Positions 32,143 to 54,012 of a stretch of DNA of 64,000 bases are shown in pieces. Source of the stretch: Planctomycetota bacterium (GTDB lineage Bacteria > Planctomycetota > B15-G4 > JADJEK01); the NCBI GenBank assembly GCA_044225365.1, contig JBGAIQ010000010.1, positions 93,095-157,094 on the forward strand. Direction: 5' to 3'. A program made the position numbers and the translations under genes. The number at the start of each line of letters is the position of its first letter. The first letter of the stretch is position 1. The notes under the pieces are model-generated. The model did no database searches. It saw only the letters and a list, made by a program, of their open reading frames with translations, and was not told where the DNA came from.

Positions 32143-35100
32143 TCAGCCGCGTCGCAACGCGACGAAAGCCGCTGCGAGCAAGGCGATCACGGGGAACGCC
32201 ATCAGCACGATGCCGAGGCGGTCGACCCCTTCGTCCTCGCCCGCGGACGACGGGCGACCGGCCTCCGGCGATTTCGCACCGACCCCACCGCCCGGGAGAC
32301 CTTGCACCTGGGTTTTCAGGAAGGCTACGACGTCGCGCATCTCTCGCAGACTCAGCTTGTCCTTCATCGTCGGCATCGCGCTCACGAGTCCGAAGCCCTT
32401 CACGATGTTGGCCTGCGGATCGAGCATCGACTGCAGCAGGTACCGCTCGTTCTGTCGCGCGCCGACGCCCGTGAGGTTCGGGCCCACGGTCCCACCGGTC
32501 CCATTCAGCGTGTGACAGCGCAGACACTCGGCGACGCGGTTGTAGAGGAACACGCGCTCGCCCCGCGCGGGGTCGCCGCCGACGAGCGCCACGCCATTCT
32601 CCGCGAGGGGGTCTCCGGAGAGGCGGATATTCTTCCACGTGTCGAGCTCGCCCTGGATCTCCGCGACGAAATCCGGCTCGCGCAGCAACTTCGCCGCTTC
32701 GAGCGTCTCGAGCGCCAGGCCCGCGGGCAACTCCCCCGCCGTGAGATCGCGCACGAGCGGTCGCAGCATGCGCGCTGCGCGCTTCTCGAGATCGGCGCCG
32801 AGTCCGAGCTCGAATCGAATCGAACTCTCCGGCGCCTTCTCGATCACGGTCCGCCACAACTCGCGGCGATTGGCATCGAGCGCTTTCACCACCGCCCCGT
32901 TCAATCGCTTCTGATGCCCGTTGTCCGTGCGGTTCCACAGCACGATCGCATCGATCCGGTATTCGGCGCCGAGATCGACCTCGAGCCAAGGGTCGTTCTC
33001 GATCGAGGTGTGGGAGACCGAGGGCTTTGCGCTGTGGTCGCCCGCGGTCGAACCATCGAATGCGAGTTCGACCGGGCCGTCGTAGTCGGTCGTCGATTGC
33101 GTCGCCTTCGCGCCCTTGCCGCGCGCCACGTTCTCCGCCCCCGCGAAGACCTCGAGTTCAGCGAGCGAGAGGATCCGTCCCGTACCCGGAAGATCAACGC
33201 GGACGTAGCGCGCGATCGGGCGGAAGTAGCGCGGGAGGAGGTCGATCGCGCTTTGCTGCTCCTGCAGCGTTCCGAAGCGCAGACTCGCCGCGATCTCGGG
33301 AAGCGCCGCCTCGGGATCGAGGCGCGCGAGTTGGTTGCGCGCTGCCGTGCGGAGCATCGCCTCGTTCGAACGCAACGCGAGTTCGATCGCCTGACGGGCC
33401 TCTTCGGCCGAGCGACGGGCCACGATGCGCAGCGAGTCGAGCCGCAGGTTCACGTTCTCGTCGACGTTGGCGATCACGGCGAGGTGCTCGCTCGTCGGCT
33501 TCGCGGGCAGCAGTCGATTGTTCAGGCTCGAGATCCGCTCGCGGAGAGCGTCGGATTCGCTCTGGATTCGGGTGAGGACACCCTCGCGCTGGGCCTTCTG
33601 ATAGGCGCGGGCGGCGATTCCCGCGTCCCGCGCCGGGCACGGCCAAACGTCGTAGTAGACGGGATCCTTCGGTGCCGGCTGATCCCACTGCTCGAGACAC
33701 TCGAGCGCGAAGATCCGCTTGTCCTCGGGATACCCGGGGATCGCGGCGAAGCGCAACAAACGATCCGCGGCCTCCTCGGTCCCCTGGCGGAGGTTGACGG
33801 CGATCGAGCGGCGCAAGATCGCTTCACTGTTGTCGCGGTTGAAGGGAAAGCGCGGAGGATCGATCGCGATCTGCTTGCCGAGCGCGGGAAACGCCGCCTC
33901 GACCCGCTCGTCGTAGATCGCACGTGCCGCTTCGCTCGCGACCTGGAACTCGGCGTCGTCGAGGAAGCGCGCGAGTTCCGGTGAGCGCAGGCGACGCAAC
34001 GCAAGCACGGCCGCGAGCCGCACCGACCGATCGGCGTGCGTGCTGAGCGCCGCGAGGCGCGCCGCATCCCCACAACCCACGAATCCCAGGACTCCGCCAT
34101 GCCGGAGCACCGCGTCGTGATCGGCGTTCGCCTTCAGCATTTCGACGAGCGGCAGGAACGCCGATGCGGCGCCGATCTTCGACAGAGCGATCGCGGACTG
34201 CAGACGTACTCGCGCCGATGCGTCCGTGAGGTGGGCGATCAGCGGCGCCGCAGCGCCCGCGACTTTGCGGTCACCGAGTTCGATCGCGGCGGCCTCGCGG
34301 TGATGGGGATCGGCGGCCGAGAGTACGGCGACGAGCGCCTCGGCCGCAGCGGAGTCGAACGCCTGCTTCCTCTCGCGGAACGACTGGGCGAGTCCATGGA
34401 TCGCGTGGATGCGTGCGAAGTGCGGAGCGGCGGAGTCCTTCACGACCGCTAGAAGGGCCGCGCGACCCTCGTCGCCGCGATCGACGAGCGCATACTGCGC
34501 GTACTGCCGCGCGCGCCAGTCGAAGTGGTCGAGCAGCTTCACGAGTTCTTCGGTCTTGCGCTGCGAGAACCCGTCGGCGAACAACTGCTTCACTTCCGCG
34601 ACGCGCGGGTCCTTCTGGCCGGCTTCGTCGTAGACGACCTCGATCGACGAATCCTTGTTGAGATCCCAGCCGCTTCCCCAGTTGGTGCAGTACAGCCGGC
34701 TGTCGTAGCCGAAGATCGCGTCGGACGGGCCGACCACCCGATCCTGCTCGAGGAAGATGTGGAAGTCCCTCACGCGGCTGCCGGCGCCGTCGTCCTCGAA
34801 CTGAAAACTCTGCAGCAGGCCGCCGCCACCCGCACAGTGCGCGAGGATGAAGTGATCGCGATAGCGCTCGGGCAATCCCGCTCCGGGGCAGTAGCAAGCG
34901 CCGGCCGGTCCTTGACCGACGGGGTAGAAGAGCGGAGGCAGGACCCACGCCGGTTTCGTCGGATCCTTCAGGAGGTCGAGAGGATTCGCCACTTTGAGGT
35001 GTTGGGCGAGATCGTCGAGCGTCATCCAGGTGAACTCCCGCATCCACGGCCCACCGGAGTCGGCGCGCTGTGGCGGTAATCGCCAACCGTAGTCCGCACC

Positions 35101-36036
35101 TTCGATGATGCGCTCGATGCGGGCGGAGTCGCCCTTGTCGCAGTTGTTGTCGCCCGTCATCAGATCGCCGTGGGCGTTGAAGGCGAGATCCTGCGGATTG
35201 CGCAGGCCCTGCGCGAAGAGCTCCACCTCGCTCCCGTCGCGGTTGCACCGGAAGACGCCGCCCATCTTCCCTTCGAAGTGCTTTCCCTCCGCCGTCGTGA
35301 TGTTGAAGCTGCGATCCCCGATCGACCAGTAGAGCCGACCGTCGAGGCCCATCACGAGGCCGTGGAGGTCGTGGCCCATGAACGAGTACACCGTGCCGAA
35401 GCCGTGCTGGACGACCGTGCGCTCGGTCTCGTCCGCGACGCCATCGCCGTTCTTGTCCTCGAGCAGCCAGAGATTCGGGATGTCGGTGTAGAAGACCTTG
35501 CCGTTCAACTCGAAGACGTCGGCGCCGGGCCCTGAGTACCAGTCGTCGAATCCATCGGCGAAGATGTGATGACGATCGGCGACGCCGTCACCGTCGGTGT
35601 CTTCGTAGAGCGAGATGCGGTCCGACAGCCCCTGATACATGCAATAGGCCGGATCGGGGTTGTTCTTGTCGGGATCGCGCCGGAACTTCCCCTTCGCCAC
35701 TTGCGACCGCAACATCTCCTCGAAGTCCTCCACGGTCTTCGCCTGGAGCTCGAGGTCTTCCAGTTCGGTGTCGCCGCGCGACTGTTTCACGCCGACCGAA
35801 TAGCGTTCGGTCTCGGCGGCGTAGACGCGACCCTTCTCGTCGATCGCGAGGCTGATCGGATGGCCCGCCATGCCGGGTGGCGCGAAGTTCTTCACGACGA
35901 GCGGCATCTGCCGCTCCGGCCCCTCGCCCGAGGGGAGCTTCGCCACCGTGGGCGGTACGTCGGGGCCGTCCTTCGTTCCATGCTCGTTCTGAGCGAACAA
36001 CAGGACGACGGCGAGATGCAGGGAGTGTGGATCCAT
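32143..36036 (-). CDS. PVC-type membrane-bound dehydrogenase-like protein: beta-propeller, HEAT repeats, discoidin/fucolectin-like insert, C-terminal CxxCH cytochrome and TM anchor
   Basis: Start MDPHSLHLAVVLLFAQ with GAGG RBS; GHDLHGL, GLRNPQDLAF, GDNNCD; HEAT repeats; ENVARGKGAKATQS..DPWLEVDLG..IVLWNRTD; GDPARGERVF..CLRCH..VGPNLT; C-terminal TM. Confidence 0.88.
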   Translation of the reverse strand: MDPHSLHLAVVLLFAQNEHGTKDGPDVPPTVAKLPSGEGPERQMPLVVKNFAPPGMAGHPISLAIDEKGRVYAAETERYSVGVKQSRGDTELEDLELQAKTVEDFEEMLRSQVAKGKFRRDPDKNNPDPAYCMYQGLSDRISLYEDTDGDGVADRHHIFADGFDDWYSGPGADVFELNGKVFYTDIPNLWLLEDKNGDGVADETERTVVQHGFGTVYSFMGHDLHGLVMGLDGRLYWSIGDRSFNITTAEGKHFEGKMGGVFRCNRDGSEVELFAQGLRNPQDLAFNAHGDLMTGDNNCDKGDSARIERIIEGADYGWRLPPQRADSGGPWMREFTWMTLDDLAQHLKVANPLDLLKDPTKPAWVLPPLFYPVGQGPAGACYCPGAGLPERYRDHFILAHCAGGGGLLQSFQFEDDGAGSRVRDFHIFLEQDRVVGPSDAIFGYDSRLYCTNWGSGWDLNKDSSIEVVYDEAGQKDPRVAEVKQLFADGFSQRKTEELVKLLDHFDWRARQYAQYALVDRGDEGRAALLAVVKDSAAPHFARIHAIHGLAQSFRERKQAFDSAAAEALVAVLSAADPHHREAAAIELGDRKVAGAAAPLIAHLTDASARVRLQSAIALSKIGAASAFLPLVEMLKANADHDAVLRHGGVLGFVGCGDAARLAALSTHADRSVRLAAVLALRRLRSPELARFLDDAEFQVASEAARAIYDERVEAAFPALGKQIAIDPPRFPFNRDNSEAILRRSIAVNLRQGTEEAADRLLRFAAIPGYPEDKRIFALECLEQWDQPAPKDPVYYDVWPCPARDAGIAARAYQKAQREGVLTRIQSESDALRERISSLNNRLLPAKPTSEHLAVIANVDENVNLRLDSLRIVARRSAEEARQAIELALRSNEAMLRTAARNQLARLDPEAALPEIAASLRFGTLQEQQSAIDLLPRYFRPIARYVRVDLPGTGRILSLAELEVFAGAENVARGKGAKATQSTTDYDGPVELAFDGSTAGDHSAKPSVSHTSIENDPWLEVDLGAEYRIDAIVLWNRTDNGHQKRLNGAVVKALDANRRELWRTVIEKAPESSIRFELGLGADLEKRAARMLRPLVRDLTAGELPAGLALETLEAAKLLREPDFVAEIQGELDTWKNIRLSGDPLAENGVALVGGDPARGERVFLYNRVAECLRCHTLNGTGGTVGPNLTGVGARQNERYLLQSMLDPQANIVKGFGLVSAMPTMKDKLSLREMRDVVAFLKTQVQGLPGGGVGAKSPEAGRPSSAGEDEGVDRLGIVLMAFPVIALLAAAFVALRRG

Positions 36037-36217: not shown

Positions 36218-38602
36218 ATGCGACCCACACTCTCGCTCGCGCTCACCCTCCTTCCTCTCACTTCACTCGCGTTCGCCCAGGGCCGCCGCTCGGACTTCGA
36301 ACGCTCCGCGTCGCTCGACGAGCGCACGCGCGATCTCGTGACCCGCGACAACGTCCATCCCCATTGGATCCCGGCGACGAGCGTCCTGTGGTATCGCGTC
36401 GACACGGGGAAGGGCACGCACGAATTCGTGCTCGTCGATTCGGAGCATGGTTCGCGACGTGTGTTCGCCGAGCAGAAGGACTTGATCGCCGCCCTGCGCG
36501 CCGCGGGCGCGGATCCGACGTCGGACTCGACGATCGGCGCCATGCATCCTTCCACCGTGCGCCGCAGCCGCCGCGGGGGCGAGCCCGTCACGATCGAGTT
36601 CGTCAATTCGCGAACGGATCGCGTCGTCCTGTATTGGCTCGACGAAAGGGGCAATCGAGTCGAATACGCGCACCTTCCGCCGGCCGGTCGTTTCGGCCAA
36701 CACACCTTCTGCCGCCATGCGTGGGTCGCCACGACGGAGACAGGCGATCCGATCGCGGCCTTCGCGATCCCTGATTCCACGAGCGACGGCGCGGTAGCGA
36801 CGATCCCAAACACCACGCCGGAAGCCCCGCCCGACGCCGGACCGAAGGCCACGCCGCGCTCGGTCGCGCCCGATCATCGGTTGGAGGCCGCGATCGAAGG
36901 ACATCAGGTCGTCCTCGTCGACACCGCATCGAAGGCGCGGCGCACGATCACGCAGGATGGAACGGAGAGCGATTCGTTCACCGGCGACTTCGAGTGGGCG
37001 CCCGACTCCGCGCATCTGATCGCGTGGCGTCTTCATCCGGGCGAACATCGCCAAGTGACGATCGTCGAATCCTCACCGCGCGATCAGACCCAGCCGAAGG
37101 TCGAATCGTTCCGCTACGACAAGCCGGGCGATCGCCTCGATCAACGCACCCCGTACCTGATCACCGTCGCGACCTCCGAGGCCCGGCCGCTGTACTCGCC
37201 AAAGGAGGTTGAGGGCGCGTTCGACATCGACTTCGTCCGTTGGACCGCCGACGGCTCACGTGCGGTCTTCCGTTACAACCAGCGGGGGCACCAGCTGCTC
37301 GCGCTCGATGCTTTCGGGGGCGACGCGCAACGCACTCGCCTCGCCGAAGAGCGAAGCGATACCTTCGTCGATTACTCGCAGAAGACCTGGTTCCAGTTCA
37401 TCGATTCATCGCATGAACTGATCTGGATGTCGGAGCGTAGTGGTTGGAATCACCTCTACCTCGTCGACGCGAACGACGGTCGCGTGAAGAACGCCATCAC
37501 CGCAGGCGAATTCGTCGTCCATCGCGTCCTCGAGTTCGATGAATCGCGGCGTGAGATCTGGCTCCTCGCGCGCGGGATCACGCCGGGCGAGGACCCCTAT
37601 CACGACCATCTCTGCCGCGTGAACTTCGACGGGTCGGGCTTCACGAAGCTGACCGAAGGAGATGGCACCCATACGATCGAGTTCTCCCCCGACCATCGGT
37701 TCTTCGTCGATCGCTGGTCGCGCGTCGATCTCCCGCCCGTCTCCGAACTGCGCGATGCCCGCAGCGGCAAGCTCGTCACCCCACTCGAGAAGGCCGACGC
37801 CTCGCGTTTGCTCGCAGCCGGGTGGACACTTCCCGAACGGTTCACGGCGAAGGGCCGCGACGGAGCGACCGACATCTGTGGCTTCCTCATCAAGCCCTCG
37901 AACTTCGATCCCAAGAAGAAGTACCCCGTCGTCGACGACATCTACTCGGGCCCCCACGACGCGCACGTCCCGAAAACGTTCGACCGACTGCTGTATCCCC
38001 ATCAGTTGGCAGAGCTCGGCTTCATCGTGGTGCAGATCGACGGCATGGGGACCAACTGGCGGTCGAAGGCCTTCCACGACGTCTGCTGGCGCAACCTGAA
38101 GGACGCGGGGATCCCCGACCACATCGCGTGGCTGAAGGCCAAGGCCGCGATCGATCCCTCGCTCGACCTCACCAATGTGGGAATCTTCGGCGTATCGGCG
38201 GGCGGGCAGAACGCACTCGCTGCCCTGCTCCATCATGGTGACTTCTATCGGGTGGGAATCGCCGACTGCGGTTGCCACGACAACCGGATGGACAAGGTGT
38301 GGTGGAACGAGGCCTGGATGGGGTACCCGATCGGCCCCTGGTACGCCGAGAACTCGAATGTCGTCAACGCCCCGAAATTGACGGGCGACCTCTTCCTCAT
38401 CGTGGGCGAGATGGACCACAACGTCGATCCCGCCTCCACTATGCAGGTCGTCGACGCTTTGATCCGTGCGAACAAGGACTTCGATCTGCTCGTCGTCCCG
38501 GGCGCCGACCACGGTGCGGGGGAATCCCCCTATGGACGGCGCCGTCAGGCGGATTTCCTGGTACGCCATCTGTGGCACGTCGAGCCGCGGGCAACGGACT
38601 GA
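36218..38602 (+). CDS. S9B/DPP IV-like peptidase with inserted VHL beta-domain
   Basis: Signal peptide; DPPIV_N-type SERSGWNHLYL; KKYPVVDDIYSGP, GVSAGG, DHNVD, GADHG; VHL-like segment near 36580-36770. Confidence 0.9.
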   Translation: MRPTLSLALTLLPLTSLAFAQGRRSDFERSASLDERTRDLVTRDNVHPHWIPATSVLWYRVDTGKGTHEFVLVDSEHGSRRVFAEQKDLIAALRAAGADPTSDSTIGAMHPSTVRRSRRGGEPVTIEFVNSRTDRVVLYWLDERGNRVEYAHLPPAGRFGQHTFCRHAWVATTETGDPIAAFAIPDSTSDGAVATIPNTTPEAPPDAGPKATPRSVAPDHRLEAAIEGHQVVLVDTASKARRTITQDGTESDSFTGDFEWAPDSAHLIAWRLHPGEHRQVTIVESSPRDQTQPKVESFRYDKPGDRLDQRTPYLITVATSEARPLYSPKEVEGAFDIDFVRWTADGSRAVFRYNQRGHQLLALDAFGGDAQRTRLAEERSDTFVDYSQKTWFQFIDSSHELIWMSERSGWNHLYLVDANDGRVKNAITAGEFVVHRVLEFDESRREIWLLARGITPGEDPYHDHLCRVNFDGSGFTKLTEGDGTHTIEFSPDHRFFVDRWSRVDLPPVSELRDARSGKLVTPLEKADASRLLAAGWTLPERFTAKGRDGATDICGFLIKPSNFDPKKKYPVVDDIYSGPHDAHVPKTFDRLLYPHQLAELGFIVVQIDGMGTNWRSKAFHDVCWRNLKDAGIPDHIAWLKAKAAIDPSLDLTNVGIFGVSAGGQNALAALLHHGDFYRVGIADCGCHDNRMDKVWWNEAWMGYPIGPWYAENSNVVNAPKLTGDLFLIVGEMDHNVDPASTMQVVDALIRANKDFDLLVVPGADHGAGESPYGRRRQADFLVRHLWHVEPRATD

Positions 38603-38911: not shown

Positions 38912-41080
38912 ATGACGCAAGTGCTCCAACCACTCGTTCGACTCGCACTCGACGGTAACTTCAAGGCTCTCGAAGAAGCGTGGATGCAGGCGGTCAGCGC
39001 CGGCGAGCGCGAGTTCGAGCACTACTTCGAAGCCGCGGACCGCACCGTGGCATCGGGTCGCGGCGACGTCGCGGGTCCGCTCCTCGGCATGCTGCTGGAG
39101 TCGATCGCCCGCGATACCGTCGACGATCACGTCTTGTCGTTCGCCGAACGTTGCGTGCTCCTGTGCATCGCGGACAAGTCGGTGCGCACGCACGCCGCCG
39201 CGATCCACAAGAAGGGCGGACGACCGGAGCTTCCCGCGCTCGTCGCACCGCTCGACGGCAGCAACAGCGACGGCATGCGCGACCGCGTCGCGAAGTGTCT
39301 GCGGTTGAAGCCGGGCGTGTTCGTGTCGGGCACCGTCCGGATCGGCCCCGAGCGTGTGACGCGCTTCGACACCGACGCACTGATCTTCGCGCTCACCGAT
39401 GGCGAGTCCGAGCGACACGTCACGCCGGAACAGGCCGCCAGCGAACTCACGCTGCTCGCGCACGACGACTTCCGCGCGCTGCTCCGGTTCGAAGTGAATC
39501 GACTGATCGAGCTCGCGGACAAGGATCCGTCGACGCTCGTCGTCTCTGCGCTGAAGGCGCACAAGAATCGCCTCGAGTGGCAAGCGCTCAAGAAGCTGCT
39601 CGCGCGCGGCGTCGTCGATCCGACCTCGTTCGCACGCTGGTGGAACAAGGCGCGCGGCCTCGTCGAGCGCAACCCGATGATCCAGGTCTACGGCGATCGC
39701 CAGCCGATCCTGATCCTGCGCACCCGTCCGATCACGCACGAAGAAGAACTCTCCGCGAAGCTGAAGACCACGAAGACCGAACTCGAGAAGTTCGACGTCG
39801 TGCTCGACTACCTGCAATCCCTCACGCAGGGCCACGCCGCGGATGCCGAGTTCCTCTCGCAGCTCGCGGACATGCTGATCGACATCGCCGAAGCGCCGAC
39901 GACCAAGGCTTCGCTCGCGATCACCGCGGCGTCGATCCTCGACGACGTGAAGAAGCTCGTTCCGACGCACACGCGCGCCGTCGACCTCGAAGCGCTCGCG
40001 ACTCGCACGCAGGACATCGCGGAGATCGCGACGCAGCTCGAGTCGGAGGATCTCTGTCGCCGCGTGCTCGAGTTCATCCGCGCGCGCATGCCCGACCGCT
40101 GGGCGCAGATCTACGCGAAGGCGCTGCCGACGGCGCCCGGTCGCCTCACGGACATGATCGCGAAGGAGTTGCTCTCCGCCGGCAAGGGCGAGGAGCTGGC
40201 GAGCGCCATCTCGGCGATCCTTGCGTCGCCCGACCGCTTCGGTGAAGGCCTGCTCTGGTTGTGGAAGGCCGCGACGAGCGACCAGCTCGCGAAGGCGCCG
40301 TGCCGCATCGACAAGGTCGCGATCACCCTCGCGGTCATCCGCACGATGAATCGCTGGGCTCGCGGCGCTCGCTCGCACGTGTCGGCGGCGCAAAAGGCGC
40401 TCGGCACGCGCATGCGCAACGCCGTCGTCGCCTCGAACTACAAAGTCGTCCTCGGGGTCTTCGAGACCGTCGACGATTCGCAAGCGGTTCAGCTCTTCCA
40501 AGCGCTCAAGGACAACCTGGGCTTCACGGACGCACAGCGCCACAAGCTCTCGGAGGAGCTGAAGCACGATCACAAGGACGCGATCATGGGCAAGAAGGAG
40601 TTGTGGGAGGAAGACGTCCTCTACACGACTCCGCGTGGCCTGCGTCAGCGCGAGGACGAGTTCAACAAGATCGTGAACAACGAGATGGTGAAGAACTCGG
40701 CCGCGATCGGCGAAGCCGCCGGTTTCGGCGACCTCTCCGAGAACGCCGAATTCACAGCCGCTCTCGAGCGTCGTGACTTCCTGGCCGCGCGCGCGAACGA
40801 GATCGGCGACGAATTGAAGAAGGCGATGCCGATCCCGGAAGACGTGAAGACCGATCGCGTGAACATCGGCACTCGCATCCGCGTGAAGAACCTGGCGTCG
40901 GGCGTCGAAGAGAATTTCACCTTCCTCGGGCCGTGGGACGCCAACCTCGAGAAGGCGATCTACTCCTATCTCGCGCCGTTCGCGCGAGTGTTCCTCGGCA
41001 AGAAGATCGGCGACGAGGTCGAGGACGGCGAGAAGCGCTACCAGATCCTCTCGATCGAGCGCGCCGAGATCACTCCCTGA
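38912..41080 (+). CDS. greA: GreA/GreB family transcription elongation factor with ~560-aa N-terminal extension
   Basis: C-terminal TTPRGL..AIGEAAGFGDLSENAEFTAA..VNIGTRI..FLGPWDA..SYLAPFARVFLGKKIGD; SFARWWNKAR in the extension. Confidence 0.85.
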   Translation: MTQVLQPLVRLALDGNFKALEEAWMQAVSAGEREFEHYFEAADRTVASGRGDVAGPLLGMLLESIARDTVDDHVLSFAERCVLLCIADKSVRTHAAAIHKKGGRPELPALVAPLDGSNSDGMRDRVAKCLRLKPGVFVSGTVRIGPERVTRFDTDALIFALTDGESERHVTPEQAASELTLLAHDDFRALLRFEVNRLIELADKDPSTLVVSALKAHKNRLEWQALKKLLARGVVDPTSFARWWNKARGLVERNPMIQVYGDRQPILILRTRPITHEEELSAKLKTTKTELEKFDVVLDYLQSLTQGHAADAEFLSQLADMLIDIAEAPTTKASLAITAASILDDVKKLVPTHTRAVDLEALATRTQDIAEIATQLESEDLCRRVLEFIRARMPDRWAQIYAKALPTAPGRLTDMIAKELLSAGKGEELASAISAILASPDRFGEGLLWLWKAATSDQLAKAPCRIDKVAITLAVIRTMNRWARGARSHVSAAQKALGTRMRNAVVASNYKVVLGVFETVDDSQAVQLFQALKDNLGFTDAQRHKLSEELKHDHKDAIMGKKELWEEDVLYTTPRGLRQREDEFNKIVNNEMVKNSAAIGEAAGFGDLSENAEFTAALERRDFLAARANEIGDELKKAMPIPEDVKTDRVNIGTRIRVKNLASGVEENFTFLGPWDANLEKAIYSYLAPFARVFLGKKIGDEVEDGEKRYQILSIERAEITP

Positions 41081-42623: not shown

Positions 42624-42648
42624 GGGCGCACAAACCGTGCGCTCCTAC
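42624..42648 (-). repeat. GTAG-type REP
   Basis: Minus strand GTAGGAGCGCACGGTTTGTGCGCCC; near-identical to copies at 19197 and 45344. Confidence 0.8.
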
Positions 42649-43922
42649 GGCATCAGGATGTCGACGGGATCCTGGTCTGCCATCTTCACGGCGAGTTCGC
42701 GGCTCCCCGTAGCGCCGGAAGACTCCGCGAGCAGGACGAGGTACTGCACGCCAAGCCACTTCACCTCGAGTTCGAAGCGGCCTTCTGCGTCCGTCACGGC
42801 GAACGACTCCGCGAAGTTCTGCAAGTCCTCGTCGGGGTCGTTCTCCGCCGCCGACTTCCCCGAAACCGCACAGACCTTTCGATGGGCGATCGGAGCGCCA
42901 TCCCGCGTGCGAATGCGCCCGCGGATCGATCCATGCGTCGAGATCTCGATTCGACACGGAACCTCGACGCCGCCCTCGACTCGGAGCGAGGTGCTCGTTT
43001 CTGGCCAGTTCGGCAAGAAAGGGATCCCCGAACTCTCTGGGATCGTGACGCGGACCGACCCGGGTTCGACCTGTGAGATTTCGAATCCCCCGTCGGCATC
43101 GGAGTACACGCGGCCAGAGAGTCTTGCCCCCTGCCAACGAACTTCCGTGCTGCATCCGATCCCGTTGACGGTGACGCGGCCCACGATCTTCTCGAAAGCT
43201 TCGGGGTACACCGCTTCGACTCGCATCAGATCGCGTGCGCGGAAATCCTCGAGTGCGATCGCGTGGCGAAGCATCGCTCCATCGCGGCGCTCGAACTCGA
43301 GCGCTCTTGCGTAGAGCGGATCAGCATCGCGAATCTCGAAGCGTCCGGCTGTATCGGTCATCGCCTCGAGATCCGTCGAGACTGGCGTCGCCGAGCCCGA
43401 GATCGGGAACGACCCGGAGGAAAACGGGATCGATTCCTCGCGCGCGAACACCCGGCCGCCCCTCGCAAACGGGGCGCGAACGCGCACGTTCGCCATGGGA
43501 GCCCCGCGCGCATCCAGGACCGTGCCCTCGATCCGCAACGCGTTGGGCACGACGAGGGCGACGTCGCCGACCTCCCTCCAGCGCGCGACCTCGACACGCA
43601 AGAACGATCCTTCCACGTGAGACGGCGACGCGGCGACGAAGAGCCAACGGTCGAAGTCGCCGGCGGAATGACGAATCTCGAACGTGCCATCGAACGCAGT
43701 GCCCGATCGCGCGACGCGGTCGCCGAGGAAGCGACAGAGATCGACGAAGACGTTGGGAACCGGGTCACCGTTTTCATCGACGACGCGACCGTGGATCACG
43801 ATTTCGTCGCCGGCCGCGCGAGAGTCCGTGACGGCCAACGGCCCGATCGAGGATTGCGCGCAGCCCACCGCCACGCACGAGCCGAGCACGATCGCGAGCA
43901 AGTTGATTCCGCTCGACACCAT
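42645..43922 (-). CDS. Carboxypeptidase-regulatory-like (prealbumin/Cna-B) repeat lipoprotein, paralog 1
   Basis: Lipobox-like AVGC; repeats GRVVDENGDPV, GTVLDARGAPM, TDTAGRFEI, GRVTVNG, KWL. Confidence 0.75.
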   Translation of the reverse strand: MVSSGINLLAIVLGSCVAVGCAQSSIGPLAVTDSRAAGDEIVIHGRVVDENGDPVPNVFVDLCRFLGDRVARSGTAFDGTFEIRHSAGDFDRWLFVAASPSHVEGSFLRVEVARWREVGDVALVVPNALRIEGTVLDARGAPMANVRVRAPFARGGRVFAREESIPFSSGSFPISGSATPVSTDLEAMTDTAGRFEIRDADPLYARALEFERRDGAMLRHAIALEDFRARDLMRVEAVYPEAFEKIVGRVTVNGIGCSTEVRWQGARLSGRVYSDADGGFEISQVEPGSVRVTIPESSGIPFLPNWPETSTSLRVEGGVEVPCRIEISTHGSIRGRIRTRDGAPIAHRKVCAVSGKSAAENDPDEDLQNFAESFAVTDAEGRFELEVKWLGVQYLVLLAESSGATGSRELAVKMADQDPVDILMP

Positions 43923-45179
43923 TCAAGTCCCCTTCGCCGACTCGCGCATCGCGACCAGTTCGAGATCGGTCATGCCCGCTCGAACGACGAAGCGCGGATG
44001 GAGATACCCCGGCTCGGCGACACATACGATGTAGTCGGTCGCGAGCCACTTCACCGGGATCTTGAATCGGCCCCGTTCGTCCGTGAGAACACTTGCCTCG
44101 ACGTGAGAGAACAGAGTCGGATCGTCCCACGAGCTGGGGGACTCGTCGTACGCGTTACTTCCGGGGATGGGCACCGCGATGATCCGAATGCCCTGGATCT
44201 TCGCGCCCCGCATGGCAAACAGTCCACCCTCGATCTCGCCATGCGTTGCCAGCGCGAAGTCGTGTTCCACCCGCTCGTCGTTATGAACCTGGACGACTGC
44301 CGAGTCCTCGGGGAAGCCGGGAAGCGACACGTCGTCCGCCTCGGTCCCCGTGAGAGCGAGACCCTCCGGGATCGCGTGGCGAGGCGTCAGTTCGACTCGC
44401 CCTGCTTCGACTCCTTCGATGCGAACCCACCCTTCCTTCGACGCGCGCACGATTCCGCGCATCGATTCGCCTCGCCACTCGATGAAGGCGGGGATCGGGA
44501 CGTCGTTCAGAGTCACCTTGCCGACGATCGTGCCGACGGCCTCGGGAAGTCGGATCTCGACGATCCAGTCGCGTTCCTTCGTGGGCGGACTCCCGAGCTC
44601 TGCATGGAAGACCCAATTCCGCTCGGTACGGATCGTCGCCGTCGAGTCGAGAGTCTTCTTCACGTTCGAGAAATCGAATCGCCCGCTCGCGTCGGTCCTC
44701 GTCGCGAGTTCGGGCCCGAGCGCCGACGGAACCCAAACGTTGTGGGCGTATCCAGAGGGGATGACGACGTGTGCGTTCGCGGTGGGAGCGCCGCCGTGAT
44801 CGAGGACTCGCCCGGAGAGCCGCAGGGAACGCTCGACCTCGAGCCGAATGTCGCCGGTCGAATCGATGTTCGCGGCGAGCACGTCCTGGAACCCGCCCTT
44901 GCGAAACCATGGCGATGCCGCCACGGTGAACTTGCGCGACAGGCTTCGATCGACTCCGGCGAAGACGAACTCGCCATCTCGCAACGTCACCGTGCTCGCA
45001 ACGACCCGGTTCGTGTCGTCGAACAACTTCACGATCGCGTTCGATTTCGCCCATCCGTCTTCGTCGACGACGTGCCCCCACAATGTGCCGCTCGGACGCT
45101 CTTCGGGCGATCCCGAACACGCGAGGAAGACGAGCGACGGCGCCACTGCGAGCACGATCGCGATTTGCCATGGTCTCAT
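43923..45179 (-). CDS. Carboxypeptidase-regulatory-like repeat lipoprotein, paralog 2
   Basis: MRPWQIAIVLAVAPSLVFLAC lipobox; GHVVDEDG, GRVLDHGGAP, TDASGRFDF, GKVTLND, KWL. Confidence 0.78.
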   Translation of the reverse strand: MRPWQIAIVLAVAPSLVFLACSGSPEERPSGTLWGHVVDEDGWAKSNAIVKLFDDTNRVVASTVTLRDGEFVFAGVDRSLSRKFTVAASPWFRKGGFQDVLAANIDSTGDIRLEVERSLRLSGRVLDHGGAPTANAHVVIPSGYAHNVWVPSALGPELATRTDASGRFDFSNVKKTLDSTATIRTERNWVFHAELGSPPTKERDWIVEIRLPEAVGTIVGKVTLNDVPIPAFIEWRGESMRGIVRASKEGWVRIEGVEAGRVELTPRHAIPEGLALTGTEADDVSLPGFPEDSAVVQVHNDERVEHDFALATHGEIEGGLFAMRGAKIQGIRIIAVPIPGSNAYDESPSSWDDPTLFSHVEASVLTDERGRFKIPVKWLATDYIVCVAEPGYLHPRFVVRAGMTDLELVAMRESAKGT

Positions 45180-45298
45180 CGACGCTCTCCCACCCGTGAA
45201 TCGACCTGCATCGTCCGGTCCACGCGGGGTTGCGTCAAGCAAGCGATGTGTAACGACCGCCGCGCATCGCGGTTCCCGAACCCGCGTCGAATCCCAAC

Positions 45299-45368
45299 GT
45301 AGGGGTCGACGGCTGTCGACCCGTCTTACACCCGAAGCGACTCGGGCGCACAAGCCGTGCGCCCCTAC
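45299..45368. repeat. Inverted pair of GTAG REPs (REPIN-like doublet)
   Basis: GTAGGGGTCGACGGCTGTCGACCC (45299-45322) and reverse-oriented GTAGGGGCGCACGGCTTGTGCGCCC (45344-45368). Confidence 0.85.
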
Positions 45369-45668
45369 GAATCGAAATCGAGCGCTGCCAGATCGTTCAC
45401 GGTCGCAGCGCGATCGATCCATGCATCGAGCTTCGCGCCATCCGAGACGGCCCCGACCCAGGCGATGAGAGCCGCCGGCGCGGTTCCAAATCTCGCCGTA
45501 TCAACCATCGCGGGTACCTCCGATGCGAACGGCGATTGCCGCTCGTGCGGAGATCACGAAGCGCTTCGCGTCGAAGATTTGGGACGAACCGCGCCCCATG
45601 GCCCGCAACTGCCGAACTGCTCGCGGCTACGGGGGTTTTTGTCCCTGCGCGGCAGCTGCCCGCCGCGA

Positions 45669-47264
45669 TCACTGCCTCGGGATCAGTCCGATCGTGATCG
45701 TAGGTGCGCCCGCGATCATTGGAAAACCGTTCATCTCGAATCGCGGATCGACGACCACGAGCAGGTAGGGAGCGTCGAGCCACTTCACCCGGAGGACCAC
45801 GGAACCGTCGGCATCGGAATCGGCCACCGACTCGGCACGCTCTTCCATCTCGGTCCGTGAGAGCACGGCGAGAGGCATTTCATCTTCCGCCGCCGCGATT
45901 TGCGAGATGGCCGCGATGCGGACTCCTGAGACCGGTCGACCCATGAGCGCAATCACCTTCCCACGGATTTCTCCCTGCGTCGTGATCGCGCAGTCTCGAT
46001 GAACTCGGGCGTTATCCTCCACCTCCATGCGATAGGTCTGAGGAGGCCATGTCGGATGCACTTTCACGACCTCGAGGAGTATCCGTAGCAGTTCGCCTTT
46101 CTTCTTATGGCCCCCTGGATTCGCCGTCGCCGGTTCAATCGCATTCTCGAGCGGCGGAGCCACGGTCCATTCGATCACTCCGGCTGCGATGCGGGAGATC
46201 TCGTACGTACCGTCGTCGCGGGTCGAAACGGTTCCGCTCTGCGCCGTCGGAGCCAGACTCCGCCACTCGATTCTCGCTCGAAGGGGCACTCCGTTCACGG
46301 TGACGCGGCCTTCGACCGTGGCGGTTCCGACTTCTACTGGCGCCCGGATCTCGACCCTTCCGGTCGCCAACTCCTCGGCGGTGAGCGTTCGAAGGATGCG
46401 GCGATCCTTCGCGAGGTCGACGGTGAGATGCCCCAGGAGTTCGGGGTCCACATCGAACAGAGTGAATTGGCCGTCGGCATCGGTAAGCGTGCTCGCCGTT
46501 CCCGGAGCCAGGACGTGGAGTTCACCCACGACCTGGTCAGCCTCGGCGTCGATCCAATGTCGATGCCGCTCGCTGTTCGCGATCGAAACGAGAACGCCCT
46601 TCAGCGGCGCCCCGGTTGCATCGAGAACGCGTCCGGTCATTCGACCGAGAGCGCCGACTTCGAGTTCGAGTCGCGCGGTCGAGTCGATTCTCGTGGCGTC
46701 GAATTGGCGAAACGAAGTAGTTCGATTTCCCGCGCGCACTTCGACGAAAAGATGGGTATTCGGCGTGCGACGGATCCCCGTGAAGGAGAACGCGCCCTCG
46801 TTCGCGGTCGAAGTGCGCTCGAGGATCACGCCGTCCCTGGTTCCCAGCAAGACGATAAGCCCCGACGCCGGCGCCCCGCTCCGATCGACGACTCTGCCCT
46901 CGACCCGGCCATCGCGCGGAACGCGAAACTCCGTCGAATTGACTCCCGCCTTGACGGGCGGCACGTACTCGACGAAATCGACCGCGCCCGGCGCGTGCAC
47001 GTGGAAGTAGAGATCGACCCCCACGCGCAAAGGCCGCACTTCGAACTCGCCCTTCGAGTTCGTAAGGCCCTCGCGAAACTCGGGACCCGCCACCGTCTCG
47101 CTGACGGCGACACGGACACCGGCGAGTGGCGCACCCGAATCGGCCGAAACCACGCGTCCCTGGAGAACGGCGACCTCGGGCGGCTTGGCCCACGCTGGCG
47201 TCGTTCTCAGGAAGAGCGAGACCAACAGCACGGACCACGCGATCCCTCCGAACCGCAACTGCAT
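45669..47264 (-). CDS. Carboxypeptidase-regulatory-like repeat secreted protein, paralog 3
   Basis: Signal peptide ending AWA; GRVVSADSGAPL, GRVVDRSGAP, GRVLDATGAPL, GRVTVNG, KWL..YLLVVVDPRF. Confidence 0.8.
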   Translation of the reverse strand: MQLRFGGIAWSVLLVSLFLRTTPAWAKPPEVAVLQGRVVSADSGAPLAGVRVAVSETVAGPEFREGLTNSKGEFEVRPLRVGVDLYFHVHAPGAVDFVEYVPPVKAGVNSTEFRVPRDGRVEGRVVDRSGAPASGLIVLLGTRDGVILERTSTANEGAFSFTGIRRTPNTHLFVEVRAGNRTTSFRQFDATRIDSTARLELEVGALGRMTGRVLDATGAPLKGVLVSIANSERHRHWIDAEADQVVGELHVLAPGTASTLTDADGQFTLFDVDPELLGHLTVDLAKDRRILRTLTAEELATGRVEIRAPVEVGTATVEGRVTVNGVPLRARIEWRSLAPTAQSGTVSTRDDGTYEISRIAAGVIEWTVAPPLENAIEPATANPGGHKKKGELLRILLEVVKVHPTWPPQTYRMEVEDNARVHRDCAITTQGEIRGKVIALMGRPVSGVRIAAISQIAAAEDEMPLAVLSRTEMEERAESVADSDADGSVVLRVKWLDAPYLLVVVDPRFEMNGFPMIAGAPTITIGLIPRQ

Positions 47265-47342
47265 GTGAACCCCCATCGACGATTCGTTGCGATGATGTTC
47301 GATCCGGAGAGACTCCCCGTCAAGGGGGCCCGTCGACGGAAA

Positions 47343-48497
47343 TCAACGCGTCACATTCGTGTATCGCTCATAAGTCTCGAGCGTCAGTACGTTGAGGGCC
47401 GTCGAATACACGGGTCCGCATTCTCGTGAAACTCGATCTTCCACGAGCCATCCGCCGTCGTCGCGTGAGCCCGTGACTCCATGCTGGAGTGCGAGGATCG
47501 TCTCGACGGTCGCGCTCATCCACGCCTCGAACCGCGCGCGCTCCGTCGGCGCGTCGGACTCGAACAGAACGAACCGCGCGAGCGTCGCGAAGTGCCAATA
47601 CGCGTAGTCGAAAGAACGAGCGGTCACATGCGCGACCGGCAGCTCCTCCTCATCGATCCGTCTCTCGACGCCGAGGCTTGCTCGGACCTCCGTGAGGTCG
47701 CGAAGCAGGAAGATCCGCGCGCACGCCGAGGCAGCCGCTGCCGCTGACCCGAGTCGCACGTCGACCGTGGGATCGTGGCGAGCGATTCCGAGAGCCAACT
47801 CGCGCGCGCGCGGAGGATCGTGAAGTCGGGCTCGTCTCGCACAGAACAACGCCAGTGCGACGATGCCATTCACGACCGGTTCGCGCGGGACCGTGGCGAG
47901 ATGATTGATCGCGCGTTGGGCGCCGTCGCGGAGCGACTCATTCGATGAGAAAGAAGAGGACTGGGAGAACGCGAGAACCTCGCAGAGCGCGAGCGTCGCG
48001 ACGGCGCCATTTGCGTGAAGGGCATCGTCCTGGCGGAACGAGCCGTCGGGCTCCTCATGGGCGAGGACGAAGTCGAGCGCGGATCTCGTGATCCTCGCCA
48101 ACTCGTACTTCGCGCCATCGAACGGGTCGATGAAGTATTGCTTCGAGTCGGGGCCGTATCCGTCGCCGAGGAACGCGAGGACGCACAGTGCGGTCGATCC
48201 GACGGCATGCGAATCGTCGCGGCTCCGCCACGATCCATCCTTGCCCTGATGACGCGCGAGCCAGCGCAGACCATTCAGAACGGCTTCCTCTGAATCTCGG
48301 TTCGGGTGAGTACGGCTCGTGCTTCCGTGTGCGCCCCGGAACGGCACTCGCGATCGAAAGACCGTGTCGTTCGCGTACCTCTCATTCGCATCCTCCGAGA
48401 GGAGCGGCGATGGAGGCGTCGTGGCGGGCGGCTCGCGGCAGGCAACAGCGATGAAGAGGAGAATCCCCATCGTCCATCGCCAGCCGCTCCTCGCCAC
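47343..48497 (-). CDS. Shortened prenyltransferase/squalene-repeat toroid paralog, probable lipoprotein
   Basis: ILLFIAVAC lipobox-like; EEAVLNGLRWLARHQGKDGSW, DYAYWHFATLA, YSTALNVLTLETYERY; start uncertain (48470/48497/48512). Confidence 0.75.
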   Translation of the reverse strand: MARSGWRWTMGILLFIAVACREPPATTPPSPLLSEDANERYANDTVFRSRVPFRGAHGSTSRTHPNRDSEEAVLNGLRWLARHQGKDGSWRSRDDSHAVGSTALCVLAFLGDGYGPDSKQYFIDPFDGAKYELARITRSALDFVLAHEEPDGSFRQDDALHANGAVATLALCEVLAFSQSSSFSSNESLRDGAQRAINHLATVPREPVVNGIVALALFCARRARLHDPPRARELALGIARHDPTVDVRLGSAAAAASACARIFLLRDLTEVRASLGVERRIDEEELPVAHVTARSFDYAYWHFATLARFVLFESDAPTERARFEAWMSATVETILALQHGVTGSRDDGGWLVEDRVSRECGPVYSTALNVLTLETYERYTNVTR

Positions 48498-48508
48498 CGG
48501 AACCTCTC

Positions 48509-50263
48509 TCACTGCTTCATCCCGAACGCGTTCTCGTAGCGGTAGTACACCTCGAGCGTCAGCACGTTGATCGCGGTCGAGTAGATCCGGCCCGCGTCGT
48601 GACTCCAGCGATCGCGGGCCATCCACGCACCCTTTCGGCACGTGTTGTCCGATTTCTCCTGAAGCGCGAGCAGCGACTTCGTCATCGCGGTATTCCACGG
48701 GCCCCAGAATTTGCCAGTGTGCTTCGGGCTGTCCGGGCCGTCGATCTGATTGAGTGCGAGCGTCGCGTAGTACCAGTAGTAGTAATCGATCGAGAGCCCG
48801 TCGTCGGAGACGGAAGGGAGACTCTCGGGCTTCACGAGTTGATCGGCGGCGGCGACGAGGAACGGATCCGTCGGATCGTGTTCCATGAAGATGCGGATGC
48901 AGGCCGTGACCGCCGCCATCGATCCCGAGAAGTACTGATACTGATCGTTCGGGCCCGAGAGTTTCTGCCCGGCCTGATCCGGTCGTTGATAACCCGCGAG
49001 CCCATTCGGCTTCCCGACCCATTTCGCGAAGGCGAGTGCGCCGTCACAGGCTTCCTTCGGCACTTCGAGTCCGGCGAGCTGCGCCGACTTGAACGCCATC
49101 GCGACCCATCCCGTGACCGACGCGTCGGCATCGGTCAGCTCCGCGCGAAACGCGGATTCGGATGCGTAGTCCGCACGATGGTCCTCCACGTGCTTGCGCG
49201 AGGTGTAACGCCAACCGAAGCGTGGATTCGAGTCGGTCGGGCCCGGGCGCTGCGCGCTCGCGAGGAACTCGATCGCGCGACGCGCGGGCTTCTTCCAGTA
49301 CGCACTCTTCGTCAGCGCGTAGGCCTCGCACATCGCAAGGGTCGCGATCGCGTCGTTGTACATGAATGGACCTGCAGTACTGAACGAGCCGTCCTCCTGC
49401 TGGTGATTCATGAGATACATGAGTCCGCGCTTCACCACCTCGCCGAAGCGAAAGGTCTGCTTCGTCACGGGATCCACCACGAAGCGTTTCGATTGGTGCG
49501 AGTAGCCGGCGCCGAGGAAGGAGAGGAGCGCGAGACCCGTCAGGCCCTCGTCGTACTGGTCCGACTTGTTGTCCTCCGCGGTGAAGCACCCGCCGTCGCC
49601 CACGCAATGGTCTGCGCTGCCGCGCATCGTCCACGAGCCATCGGCGTTCTGATGGCGGCAGAGCCAAAGCTGTCCGTTCAGCACCGCCTCCTCCGTTTGA
49701 ACGGTGGGGCCTCGGCCCTTTCCCGGACGATGGTTCCCGGGGTTCCTCGAGGTGAACGGAGTGGGCCCACTCCCATCGCGATATCCGTGATCTCCGACGC
49801 CGATGCCGGTGTTGGATCGAGTGAAAGCCCCATTCGAAACGAGCGCAGGTTCGACGCTTGGGTTCGGATCTCCCGAGTCGATGCTGACCGGCGCGACGAT
49901 GTGCTCGTTCTGAAAATCGACGACCTCCAGTTCGTCGTCGTTCGGGATCTTGTGCCGTTCGACGGGCGGTTCGACGGGCGGCGCCTCGGGGATCTCGTCA
50001 CGTTGCGAATGGACCGGAATGACGGGGATCACGACTTCCTTCGGTCGTTCGGACCGCACGTAGCTCATCCCGAGAATCGCGATCACCGCAAGGTGCGCCG
50101 CGACCGAGATCACGACCCACGGTGAGTTGCGAACGTAGGCGCGCAGCGCGTCGATCCTCGTCCGCTGCGGTCGCAACGAGTCGCCACCTATTTCGGACTC
50201 TGCGGTCGCTACTTCCTCTTTCGTGCCGATCTCTCGTCGCTCACGACCCATGGCGTCACCCAT
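48509..50263 (-). CDS. Prenyltransferase/squalene-repeat toroid protein with SxxxH TM anchor; close paralog of 27696..29522
   Basis: RNSPWVVISVAAHLAVIAILGMSYV, DASVTGW, YYYWYYATLALNQIDGPDSPK, TLEVYYRYENAFG nearly identical to the first copy; start 50251 or 50263. Confidence 0.88.
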   Translation of the reverse strand: MGDAMGRERREIGTKEEVATAESEIGGDSLRPQRTRIDALRAYVRNSPWVVISVAAHLAVIAILGMSYVRSERPKEVVIPVIPVHSQRDEIPEAPPVEPPVERHKIPNDDELEVVDFQNEHIVAPVSIDSGDPNPSVEPALVSNGAFTRSNTGIGVGDHGYRDGSGPTPFTSRNPGNHRPGKGRGPTVQTEEAVLNGQLWLCRHQNADGSWTMRGSADHCVGDGGCFTAEDNKSDQYDEGLTGLALLSFLGAGYSHQSKRFVVDPVTKQTFRFGEVVKRGLMYLMNHQQEDGSFSTAGPFMYNDAIATLAMCEAYALTKSAYWKKPARRAIEFLASAQRPGPTDSNPRFGWRYTSRKHVEDHRADYASESAFRAELTDADASVTGWVAMAFKSAQLAGLEVPKEACDGALAFAKWVGKPNGLAGYQRPDQAGQKLSGPNDQYQYFSGSMAAVTACIRIFMEHDPTDPFLVAAADQLVKPESLPSVSDDGLSIDYYYWYYATLALNQIDGPDSPKHTGKFWGPWNTAMTKSLLALQEKSDNTCRKGAWMARDRWSHDAGRIYSTAINVLTLEVYYRYENAFGMKQ

Positions 50264-50436
50264 TTCCGAAGCGCCGAGCTTCGGATTCCTTCGAGTTCGA
50301 ATTGTCGCGGGTCCCGCAGCGGGGGTGGGCCGACTCGGATTCGATCGGCGCTTCTCGTCTCGCGTCTCGCGAACGGCCGAGGGGAACGAGGGTCTCGCCC
50401 CTTGGTTTGACGATTCCGAAAAAAGGCGTCGCGGGC

Positions 50437-51879: not shown

Positions 51880-51890
51880 AGTCCTGATTT

Positions 51891-52238
51891 CTACGAAGGA
51901 GGTTCCTTGGCGACTCGCCCGCCACGCAACGCCCGCCAGATTCGAGACCAGACTCCGACCTTCACGGGGACGGACGAATCGATCGACGTCACACCGGTCT
52001 TGTGGCATTGCGTGCAGTAAACGAACAGACGGACGATTCCAGGAGTCGCAGGATCGATGTGACGCCGCCATCGCGACTCGCGCAACTTACAGAACGGACA
52101 GTAGACCTTGCCGGCGTCCTTCGGCCCCATCACGAACGCACGCGCCTCGCGCGCAATCGCGTCGATCTCGCTCTGCGAGTACCGCTGCGCGTTGTCGAGC
52201 TCGCCGAGCTTGTCCGGACCGGGCACGCCATCCATCAT
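51891..52238 (-). CDS. Small (115 aa) CxxC...CxxC Zn-ribbon-like protein
   Basis: 3' end of listed ORF 51891..53267; ATG overlaps the upstream stop (ATGA); YCPFC...YCTQCH. Confidence 0.65.
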   Translation of the reverse strand: MMDGVPGPDKLGELDNAQRYSQSEIDAIAREARAFVMGPKDAGKVYCPFCKLRESRWRRHIDPATPGIVRLFVYCTQCHKTGVTSIDSSVPVKVGVWSRIWRALRGGRVAKEPPS

Positions 52239-53887: not shown

Positions 53888-54012
53888 CCGAACGTTTCGG
53901 GGGTACCATTCGCTCCGCTTCGTTGTAAGGTCGACCAAGGCCGATCGCAAGCGGAACGCGAGCGACGGCGTTTGCGCACCGTCATGGGCGCGCTACTCCT
54001 CTTCCCTGCGAA

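Follow-up and report, generated by a model that had tools for sequence, protein, structure and literature searches.

A predicted exported S9 peptidase of a Planctomycetota bacterium carries an inserted VHL domain with a conserved hydroxyproline-type pocket

The window analysed here, a stretch of 64,000 nucleotides from a contig of a Planctomycetota bacterium (JBGAIQ010000010.1, positions 93,095 to 157,094), contains at 36218-38602 of the forward strand a gene whose product is predicted to be an exported serine peptidase of the S9 family with the fold of dipeptidyl peptidase IV (DPP IV), i.e. a beta-propeller combined with an alpha/beta-hydrolase domain. Inserted into the propeller is a domain homologous to the von Hippel-Lindau protein (VHL), and alignments indicate that the residues by which human VHL contacts hydroxyproline (Hyp) are the most conserved feature of this domain. 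The safest statement that the comparisons allow is that the family conserves a VHL-type ligand pocket; for the exported peptidase clade, Hyp appears to be the best-supported ligand of that pocket. We consider it somewhat probable that the protein is an exported S9 peptidase for Hyp-containing oligopeptides, in which the VHL module docks Hyp to select or position the substrate.

Homology to VHL and a VHL fold of the inserted piece are established by sequence comparison and modelling. The Pfam VHL profile (PF01847) scored the whole protein at 16.9 bits, which is under the gathering cut-off of 21 bits and counts against the assignment. On a 77-amino-acid (aa) piece the same profile reached 22.3 bits, over the cut-off, and a six-frame search of the genome gave 20.9 bits at this locus, or 21.3 bits with its neighbours in frame, which was counted as over the cut-off. 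Close relatives exceed the score of the window protein, the homologue from Chthoniobacter flavus reaching 27.1 bits. When a 97-aa piece was compared by phmmer with all PDB sequences, the 24 best of 26 matches were VHL (best E value 0.0025), and the remaining two, non-VHL matches had E values of 0.79 and 1.5. A domain profile of 33 sequences, composed of the window protein, 19 peptidase relatives and 13 short stand-alone proteins, matched VHL in the PDB at E 9e-12 (48 bits), with the next non-VHL chain at 0.012. The AlphaFold model of the domain, which was built on the 33-sequence alignment, shows seven strands at a predicted local distance difference test score (pLDDT) of 87.4. Among the Foldseek matches listed for this model (to rank 49) all are VHL chains, the best having an E value of 2.5e-6, a probability of 1.00, a template-modelling (TM) score of 0.75, a root-mean-square deviation (rmsd) of 3.7 and 27% identity. 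The original prediction had aligned the segment to human VHL by eye; HMMER prints the identical alignment, and the VHL fold is indeed predicted and matched by solved VHL chains. Neither a VHL C-terminal or alpha-domain family nor a BC-box was among the Pfam matches of the window protein up to E = 1, and the VHL domain runs straight into a linker and the propeller.

The Hyp site of human VHL consists of W88, Y98, H110, S111, H115 and W117, with S111 and H115 bonding the 4-hydroxyl and Y98 the Hyp carbonyl (PMC9528729). Adding 51 to the chain index brings W88, Y98, H110, S111, Y112, H115 and W117 all onto the correct letters of the VHL chain. According to the HMMER alignment, W88, Y98, H110, H115 and W117 correspond to identical residues of the window protein, S111 to threonine and Y112 to phenylalanine, which confirms the earlier claim that W, Y, H and W are kept and S111 is replaced by T. 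In an alignment of 21 members of the peptidase family (mean column identity 49%), W140, Y150, T163, H167, W169 and the equivalent of N78 are invariant; residue numbers of the window protein, such as S660 or T163, refer to the 794-aa form starting at ATG 36218 (P0002). The 33-sequence domain alignment has a mean identity of 21%, and invariance in it is confined to six columns (N, W, Y, T, H, W), five of which are pocket positions. Among 297 domain copies from the 150 best representatives, the pocket residues were counted as W in 292, Y in 244, T in 277 with S in another 15, H in 282 and W in 282, and the position of H110 varies.

Conserved residues might also serve folding, in which case the VHL domain could be a structural lid or spacer on the propeller that has no specific ligand and acts as a side-opening gate or in oligomerisation. 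The folding core of VHL, described as an "aromatic tetrahedron" of F76/W117/F119/F136 (PMC3688787), includes W117 and F76, both of which are kept in the bacterial family; the linkers flanking the domain are of low confidence in the model, and relatives that have no such domain keep all catalytic features, so the domain would be dispensable for catalysis. However, the core residue F119 is replaced by non-aromatic residues and F136 could not be placed, whereas W88, Y98, S111 (as T) and H115, contacts outside the core, are invariant. Because the contact residues are invariant and core F119 is not aromatic, conservation appears to follow the binding site, not the core. A polar Thr/His pair would, besides, not be typical of a purely structural core, and a ligand-free lid or spacer seems improbable to us.

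Loci of the peptidase clade were recognised by the invariant blocks [AS]DCGCHDN and GExDxNVDPA in a scan of one genome per species, which yielded at least 588 loci, of which 80 were kept for locus analyses. The majority of the clade loci belong to Planctomycetota, Verrucomicrobiota and Armatimonadota, and the clade includes the cultured Chthoniobacter flavus Ellin428, Novipirellula rosea and a Bremerella strain. In 67 of the 80 loci the VHL domain lies within the peptidase open reading frame (ORF), three are cut by a contig end, and ten are full-length and have no such domain. These 10 of 77 full-length relatives miss exactly the domain of about 85 aa and are otherwise collinear in the alignment, which bears out the proposal that the domain is inserted; judged from the alignments, it is a separate module that interrupts the propeller in its N-terminal part. 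The family profile aligns to the bacterial dipeptidyl aminopeptidase IV (DAP IV) structure 5yp1 from residue 159 onward only. Directly before the VHL domain, at a site corresponding to residues ~95-113 (window ~36500-36556), most relatives carry a strand-rich segment of about 65 aa, which is missing from the window protein, the C. flavus protein and a few others, independent of the presence of the VHL domain; with this segment, an entire blade of the propeller may have been gained or lost.

The 45-residue peptide quoted in the original prediction was located, as claimed, within 36580-36770, namely at 36593-36727 (+). Its ORF is intact and extends from GTG 36149 through the stop at 38602 (+), ATG 36218 being the likely true start, which gives a protein of 794 aa. 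With a GC content at third codon positions (GC3) of 0.80 in a window of 65% GC, and with its many homologues, the frame is regarded as a real gene. Its features, all on the forward strand and in window coordinates, are the following.

36218..38602 (+): gene of the VHL-domain S9 peptidase, 794 aa (ORF, recorded form P0002, GC3 0.80)
36218..36277 (+): Sec signal peptide, predicted by inspection of the translation, with MRPTLSLALTLLPLTSLAFA preceding QG (helix at residues 2-18 in the model)
36335..36517 (+): N-terminal propeller segment, residues ~40-100, with three strands and a helix in the whole-protein model; W58, V73 and D74 conserved
36575..36808 (+): VHL beta-type domain, predicted seven-strand beta sandwich (Pfam, phmmer, profile, model, Foldseek)
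36605-36607 (+): codon of the invariant N of the VHL domain (domain alignment)
36635-36637, 36665-36667 and 36701-36703 (+): VHL pocket codons for W, Y and H (alignment to human VHL)
36704-36706, 36716-36718 and 36722-36724 (+): VHL pocket codons for T, H and W (alignment to human VHL)
36809..36853 (+): Pro/Thr/Ala-rich linker after the VHL domain, pLDDT <50 at residues 198-210, of varying length among relatives
~36956-36970 (+): gap at the place of the double-Glu helix (alignment)
36989..37738 (+): remaining beta-propeller, Pfam DPPIV_N profile positions 106-354 (Pfam, alignments)
38006..38560 (+): alpha/beta-hydrolase catalytic domain, Pfam Peptidase_S9 (Pfam, alignments)
38195-38197, 38414-38416 and 38510-38512 (+): predicted catalytic Ser, Asp and His codons (alignment)
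38264..38296 (+): invariant block DCGCHDNRMDK in place of the S1-pocket segment of DPP IV (alignments)

The Pfam profiles Peptidase_S9 and DPPIV_N match the window protein with E values of 3.6e-40 and 2.5e-35, the latter with its positions 106-354 only. The closest solved relatives are bacterial DAP IV enzymes; 5yp1 was matched at E 5e-45 by the single sequence, and the family profile lowered this value to E 3.8e-61. The AlphaFold model of the entire protein (pLDDT 82.8, predicted TM score 0.77) aligned with the DAP IV structure 2ecf over 619 of 794 residues (Z 29.9, rmsd 7.2), and what is left unaligned roughly equals in size the signal peptide, inserted domain and linkers combined. The DPP IV-like fold proposed for the host peptidase is thus supported by Pfam domains as well as by the matches to 5yp1 and 2ecf.

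In PmDAP IV (5yp1), N614, V639, W642, Y645, Y649 and V692 form the S1 pocket, a short helix of blade 4 carries the double-Glu motif (E208-E209) that binds the substrate N-terminus, and the catalytic triad consists of S613, D689 and H721 (PMC5807507). The triad is intact in the window protein, where S660, D733 and H765 align to these residues and are invariant in 21 sequences. The pairwise alignment sets E208-E209 against T-E. Aligned with the canonical paralogues of the same genome, all seven family members shown have a gap in place of the DW[VL]Y[EQ]EE segment; these three DPPIV_N paralogues, encoded elsewhere in the genome, contain both DW[VL]Y[EQ]EE and YDxIYxERYM. The six S1 positions, in the order given above, read A/C/N/D/W/V in the sequence alignment (one of six identical), and D646 of PmDAP IV is replaced by lysine. 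V639, W642, Y645 and D646 thereby correspond to C, N, D and K within DCGCHDNRMDK, and the remodelled S1 residues sit in a block, DCGCHDNRMDKxWWNE, that is invariant in the 21-sequence alignment of the family. In FAP, an alanine at the D646-equivalent is thought to favour endopeptidase action (PMC5807507). Since the double-Glu helix is lost and the D646 position is occupied by lysine, the enzyme is probably not a dipeptidyl aminopeptidase, and the description as a peptidase of proline-specific type could not be upheld in view of this loss and of the altered S1 pocket. S9 propeller peptidases normally act on oligopeptides; direct attack on collagen or extensin polymers, which had been proposed as the target, is therefore unlikely. 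The block DCGCHDNRMDK, with two cysteines (CGC), marks the large S9 peptidase clade of at least 588 loci as a whole, and its polar residues H, D, N, R, D and K suggest that the S1 site is of a very different kind, or that the block holds a metal or forms a disulfide.

For the analysis of gene context, the ORFs flanking the 80 loci were clustered, and genes of Hyp metabolism were counted within 8 kb. A universal neighbour was not found among the flanking ORF clusters, and since even the largest of them covers only 10 of 80 loci, an obligate operon partner was rejected. Three clusters that recur are those of the DHDPS family (at 8 loci), of the Pro_racemase family (likewise at 8) and of DAO-type FAD oxidoreductases (at 6); DHDPS, epimerase and DAO families, joined at one locus by an aldehyde dehydrogenase, are taken together those of the bacterial trans-4-hydroxy-L-proline pathway. 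Genes of this Hyp-catabolism type occur within 8 kb in 9 of 80 loci, which belong to Armatimonadota (L024, L086), Verrucomicrobiota (L030, L037, L045, L051, L058, L063) and Planctomycetota (L062) and show at least four different gene orders. The chance expectation would be 0.3-1.3 per 80 loci if 1-3 such genes are assumed per genome of 3-5 Mb.

The neighbour genes of five of the nine Hyp-linked loci were scanned against NCBIfam. At all five, the racemase-family genes best match 4-hydroxyproline epimerase equivalogs, with 383-417 bits, which falls slightly short of the curated cut-offs (442-450), but only reach 196-225 bits against the proline racemase model. The DAO genes of the scanned loci match the D-amino-acid dehydrogenase subfamily, and one locus adds an aldehyde dehydrogenase whose best matches, to 2,5-dioxovalerate/alpha-ketoglutarate-semialdehyde dehydrogenases, are weak. 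In C. flavus Ellin428, genes for DHDPS, Xaa-Pro aminopeptidase, Hyp epimerase, VHL-peptidase and D-amino-acid dehydrogenase are arranged on one strand, and the ORFs of the VHL-peptidase and the dehydrogenase overlap. Locus L024 likewise presents DHDPS, an unassigned stretch, epimerase, dehydrogenase and peptidase on one strand. Two Chthoniobacter loci carry an Xaa-Pro aminopeptidase gene. DUF885 proteins, for which Pfam gives no function, adjoin the clade peptidase in a Chthoniobacter (L045:5746-7917) and in a member of the Pirellulales (L062:10084-12009), which hints at a multi-peptidase set for the degradation of Hyp peptides.

Co-occurrence was assessed in an even sample of 151 genomes from the phylum of the window, with true family members defined by a score of at least 860 bits. 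The peptidase was present in 16 of these genomes and a Pro_racemase-family gene in 21; both were found in 7 of the 16 peptidase genomes, as compared with 14 Pro_racemase-family genes among the 135 genomes that have no peptidase. The gene linkage provides, at the level of predicted functions, independent support for a hydroxyproline-peptide substrate.

Several observations weigh against this assignment. No Hyp gene occurs within 8 kb at 71 of 80 loci, and the co-occurrence (odds ratio 6.7, Fisher p 0.002) is overstated, since related genomes are not independent. The epimerase family is absent from 9 of the 16 peptidase-bearing genomes, among them that of the window, which is 94% complete and in which no Pro_racemase-family gene was found; no Hyp-catabolism genes lie beside the window peptidase, its neighbours being unrelated to Hyp. 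At L062 the Hyp-linked peptidase has no VHL domain, so that the linkage belongs to the peptidase clade and not strictly to the domain. Conserved VHL pocket residues also occur in TIR and caspase (Peptidase_C14) fusions and in the partner protein of retron type X, whose VHL domain is predicted to be cytoplasmic (PMC7736814), and the function of prokaryotic VHL domains has been stated to be unknown (Mestre 2020, PMC7736814). Because Hyp is not expected in TIR and caspase fusions or with a cytoplasmic retron partner, the ligand of the family may be broader than Hyp.

A pocket for another ligand, such as unmodified proline, a different hydroxylated or cyclic residue, or a small molecule, would be compatible with this conservation across unlike architectures, some of them predicted to be cytoplasmic (TIR_2, Peptidase_C14, the retron type X partner), and the substrates of the peptidase would then be ordinary proline-rich or other oligopeptides. 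It would also agree with the threonine that replaces serine in 277 of 297 copies and with the lack of Hyp catabolism genes at most loci and in the genome of the window. The peripheral subsites N67, R69, F91 and I109 of VHL are not retained in the window protein (phmmer alignment), which can be read in the same sense, but is likewise expected if another peptide surrounds the same central residue. Against a different ligand stands the invariance of the Thr/His pair equivalent to the residues that bind the 4-hydroxyl in VHL, and the nine loci from three phyla link the peptidase to 4-Hyp epimerase-type genes, not to proline utilisation genes. On balance, we judge a ligand other than Hyp to be rather unlikely for this clade.

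The arrangement of a reader domain and a hydrolase on one chain could furthermore bring to mind an analogue of the prolyl hydroxylase domain (PHD)-VHL degron, in which a protease replaces the ubiquitin ligase and removes endogenous proteins or peptides that were Hyp-marked by a bacterial prolyl hydroxylase. The six-frame search indeed revealed one 2-oxoglutarate (2OG)-Fe(II) oxygenase of PF13640 type in the genome (28.1 bits). However, this gene sits on another contig and is marginal, its called ORF scoring 25.5 bits, under the cut-off of 27 bits, and no 2OG oxygenase cluster recurs among the neighbours of the 80 loci. As the peptidase bears a predicted signal peptide and the linked genes are catabolic and not regulatory, such a degron system is highly improbable.

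For the peptidase of Hyp-containing oligopeptides, which we favour, the following mode of action is proposed. The exported enzyme would act on fragments of collagen or gelatin, or of plant or algal hydroxyproline-rich glycoproteins. In its VHL pocket, the residues W, Y and W would make up an aromatic cage and the Thr/His pair would hydrogen-bond the 4-hydroxyl, and by docking a Hyp residue of the substrate the VHL module would select the peptide and position it in the cleft between propeller and hydrolase. With the N-terminus anchor lost, the register of cleavage might be set by Hyp docking instead of by a distance of two residues from the N-terminus. The products would pass to Xaa-Pro aminopeptidase and then, in hosts having these enzymes, to Hyp epimerase, D-Hyp dehydrogenase and deaminase. 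Binding of Hyp, the substrate class, endo- versus exo-action and the cooperation of pocket and active site are all inferred. Of the original idea that the module recruits Hyp- or Pro-containing substrates, the part that rests on the conserved Hyp-contact residues and on the 9 of 80 Hyp-linked loci stands, and proline-specific cleavage and attack on polymers are not supported as proposed. In a wider scenario, which we put forward with considerable doubt, bacterial VHL domains would be ancient extracellular Hyp readers, one of which took the place of the DPP IV anchor to give a "Hyp-ruler" peptidase, and pVHL would descend from such a nutrient-scavenging module. That the domain offers a clue to the ancestral function of VHL, as had been suggested, is plausible because the bacterial VHL family is very large.

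The extent of the family became apparent when the 97-aa piece was compared with 1.84 billion cluster representatives: 1157 clusters matched at E <= 0.001, and for 85 the E value was 1e-10 or lower; many contain tandem VHL-type copies. Of the 132 representatives of up to 700 aa among the best 150 of the 1157, 131 carry Pfam VHL over the cut-off. Some representatives (P0027-P0033, P0096, P0100) are 900-2200 aa long and contain between 4 and 24 VHL-type domains in tandem. The presence of a VHL domain in such peptidases is already known to the databases, which label PF01847 beside PF00930 and PF00326 in 17 of 25 homologues found. On the function of bacterial VHL domains, no papers were found beyond PMC7736814 and PMC9002001 in a search whose coverage did not extend to subscription journals; PMC9002001 is an in-silico account of one hypothetical protein, and a neighbourhood paper from eLife 2014 (PMC4113996) touches peptidase families merely in passing. 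New in the present analysis are the family-wide count of pocket residues, the clean indel, the loss of the DPP IV determinants, and the Hyp linkage of 9 of 80 loci over three phyla.

In the genome of the window itself, the six-frame search gave no other VHL locus over the Pfam cut-off. A weak match to the VHL profile (15.5 bits, under the cut-off) lies in a 90-aa frame at G000:C30:211877-212053 (L002) and could be a diverged stand-alone VHL-type domain or a chance match. Around the peptidase, the window encodes a divergently transcribed DUF7133-HEAT-cytochrome c protein, a GreA-like fusion and a pyridoxal phosphate-dependent decarboxylase; they were dismissed as a functional clue, none being informative for the peptidase. 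The first of these, the product of a large gene at 32146-36000 (-), has besides DUF7133 and HEAT repeats a domain of F5/8 type C (galactose-binding-like) and, at its C-terminus, a cytochrome c domain; 6 of the 80 related loci likewise have a DUF7133 gene near the peptidase, perhaps no more than a reflection of the abundance of this family in bacteria of the Planctomycetes-Verrucomicrobia-Chlamydiae (PVC) group. At 38912-41080 (+) a protein of 722 aa is encoded whose last ~150 residues comprise the N- and C-terminal domains of GreA/GreB; it is unusually long for a Gre-factor fusion, and the preceding ~570 residues have no Pfam match. Four to five genes at 42648-52086 (-) contain CarboxypepD_reg-like repeats and partial dioxygenase-like matches, and genes for a PMT_2 glycosyltransferase and for a SPASM/radical-SAM protein come next (52238-55065).

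Oxygen sensing in animals and most proteolysis-targeting chimera (PROTAC) drugs depend on the hydroxyproline pocket of VHL; for the large prokaryotic branch of the family, the peptidase clade offers a concrete, testable case, with reader pocket and hydrolase on one chain and with cultured hosts such as Chthoniobacter flavus, where the gene lies inside a Hyp catabolism operon. If the pocket reads Hyp, this would explain how PVC bacteria of soil and water harvest collagen and extensin peptides, would supply biotechnology and peptide mapping with a naturally occurring peptidase specific for Hyp, and would mean that Hyp recognition is older than the ubiquitin system of eukaryotes. Otherwise, the near-invariant pocket would indicate a different ligand.

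With the beta domain of human pVHL (PF01847; PDB 1lm8, 4ajy and 6fmi), the Hyp reader of CRL2-VHL, the window domain shares the predicted seven-strand fold, profile homology and the residues of the Hyp site, apart from the conservative change of S111 to threonine. Unlike pVHL, it has no alpha domain or BC-box and hence no link to Elongin C and cullin, it differs at the peripheral subsites N67, R69, F91 and I109, and it is embedded in an enzyme that is predicted to be exported, whereas pVHL is a cytosolic adaptor. The S9B enzymes PmDAP IV (5yp1) and Stenotrophomonas maltophilia DAP IV (2ecf) resemble the window protein in fold and triad, and the periplasmic PmDAP IV also in its signal peptide; the window protein differs from them by the missing double-Glu helix, the altered S1 pocket and the additional VHL domain. 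Other prokaryotic VHL proteins labelled by Pfam comprise stand-alone exported proteins of ~100 aa, tandem arrays, the retron type X partner and fusions with lectin, OmpA, CAP, TIR, caspase or metallopeptidase domains. They have the near-invariant signature of N, W, Y, T, H and W in common with the window domain, which is set apart from them as an internal insertion in an enzyme and by the linkage of its clade to Hyp catabolism genes. The M9 collagenase cluster of Colwellia (PMC7883544) and the LhpA-type epimerase pathway are similar to the clade loci in that peptidases occur together with genes for Hyp epimerase, dehydrogenase and deaminase. Clusters of the Colwellia type name an M9 collagenase, an aminopeptidase and a Hyp dipeptidase, and the available part of PMC7883544 mentions no S9 peptidase with a VHL domain; the window locus, for its part, differs from them in having no such cluster, in contrast to relatives such as C. 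flavus Ellin428, which combine the VHL-peptidase with the catabolic genes.

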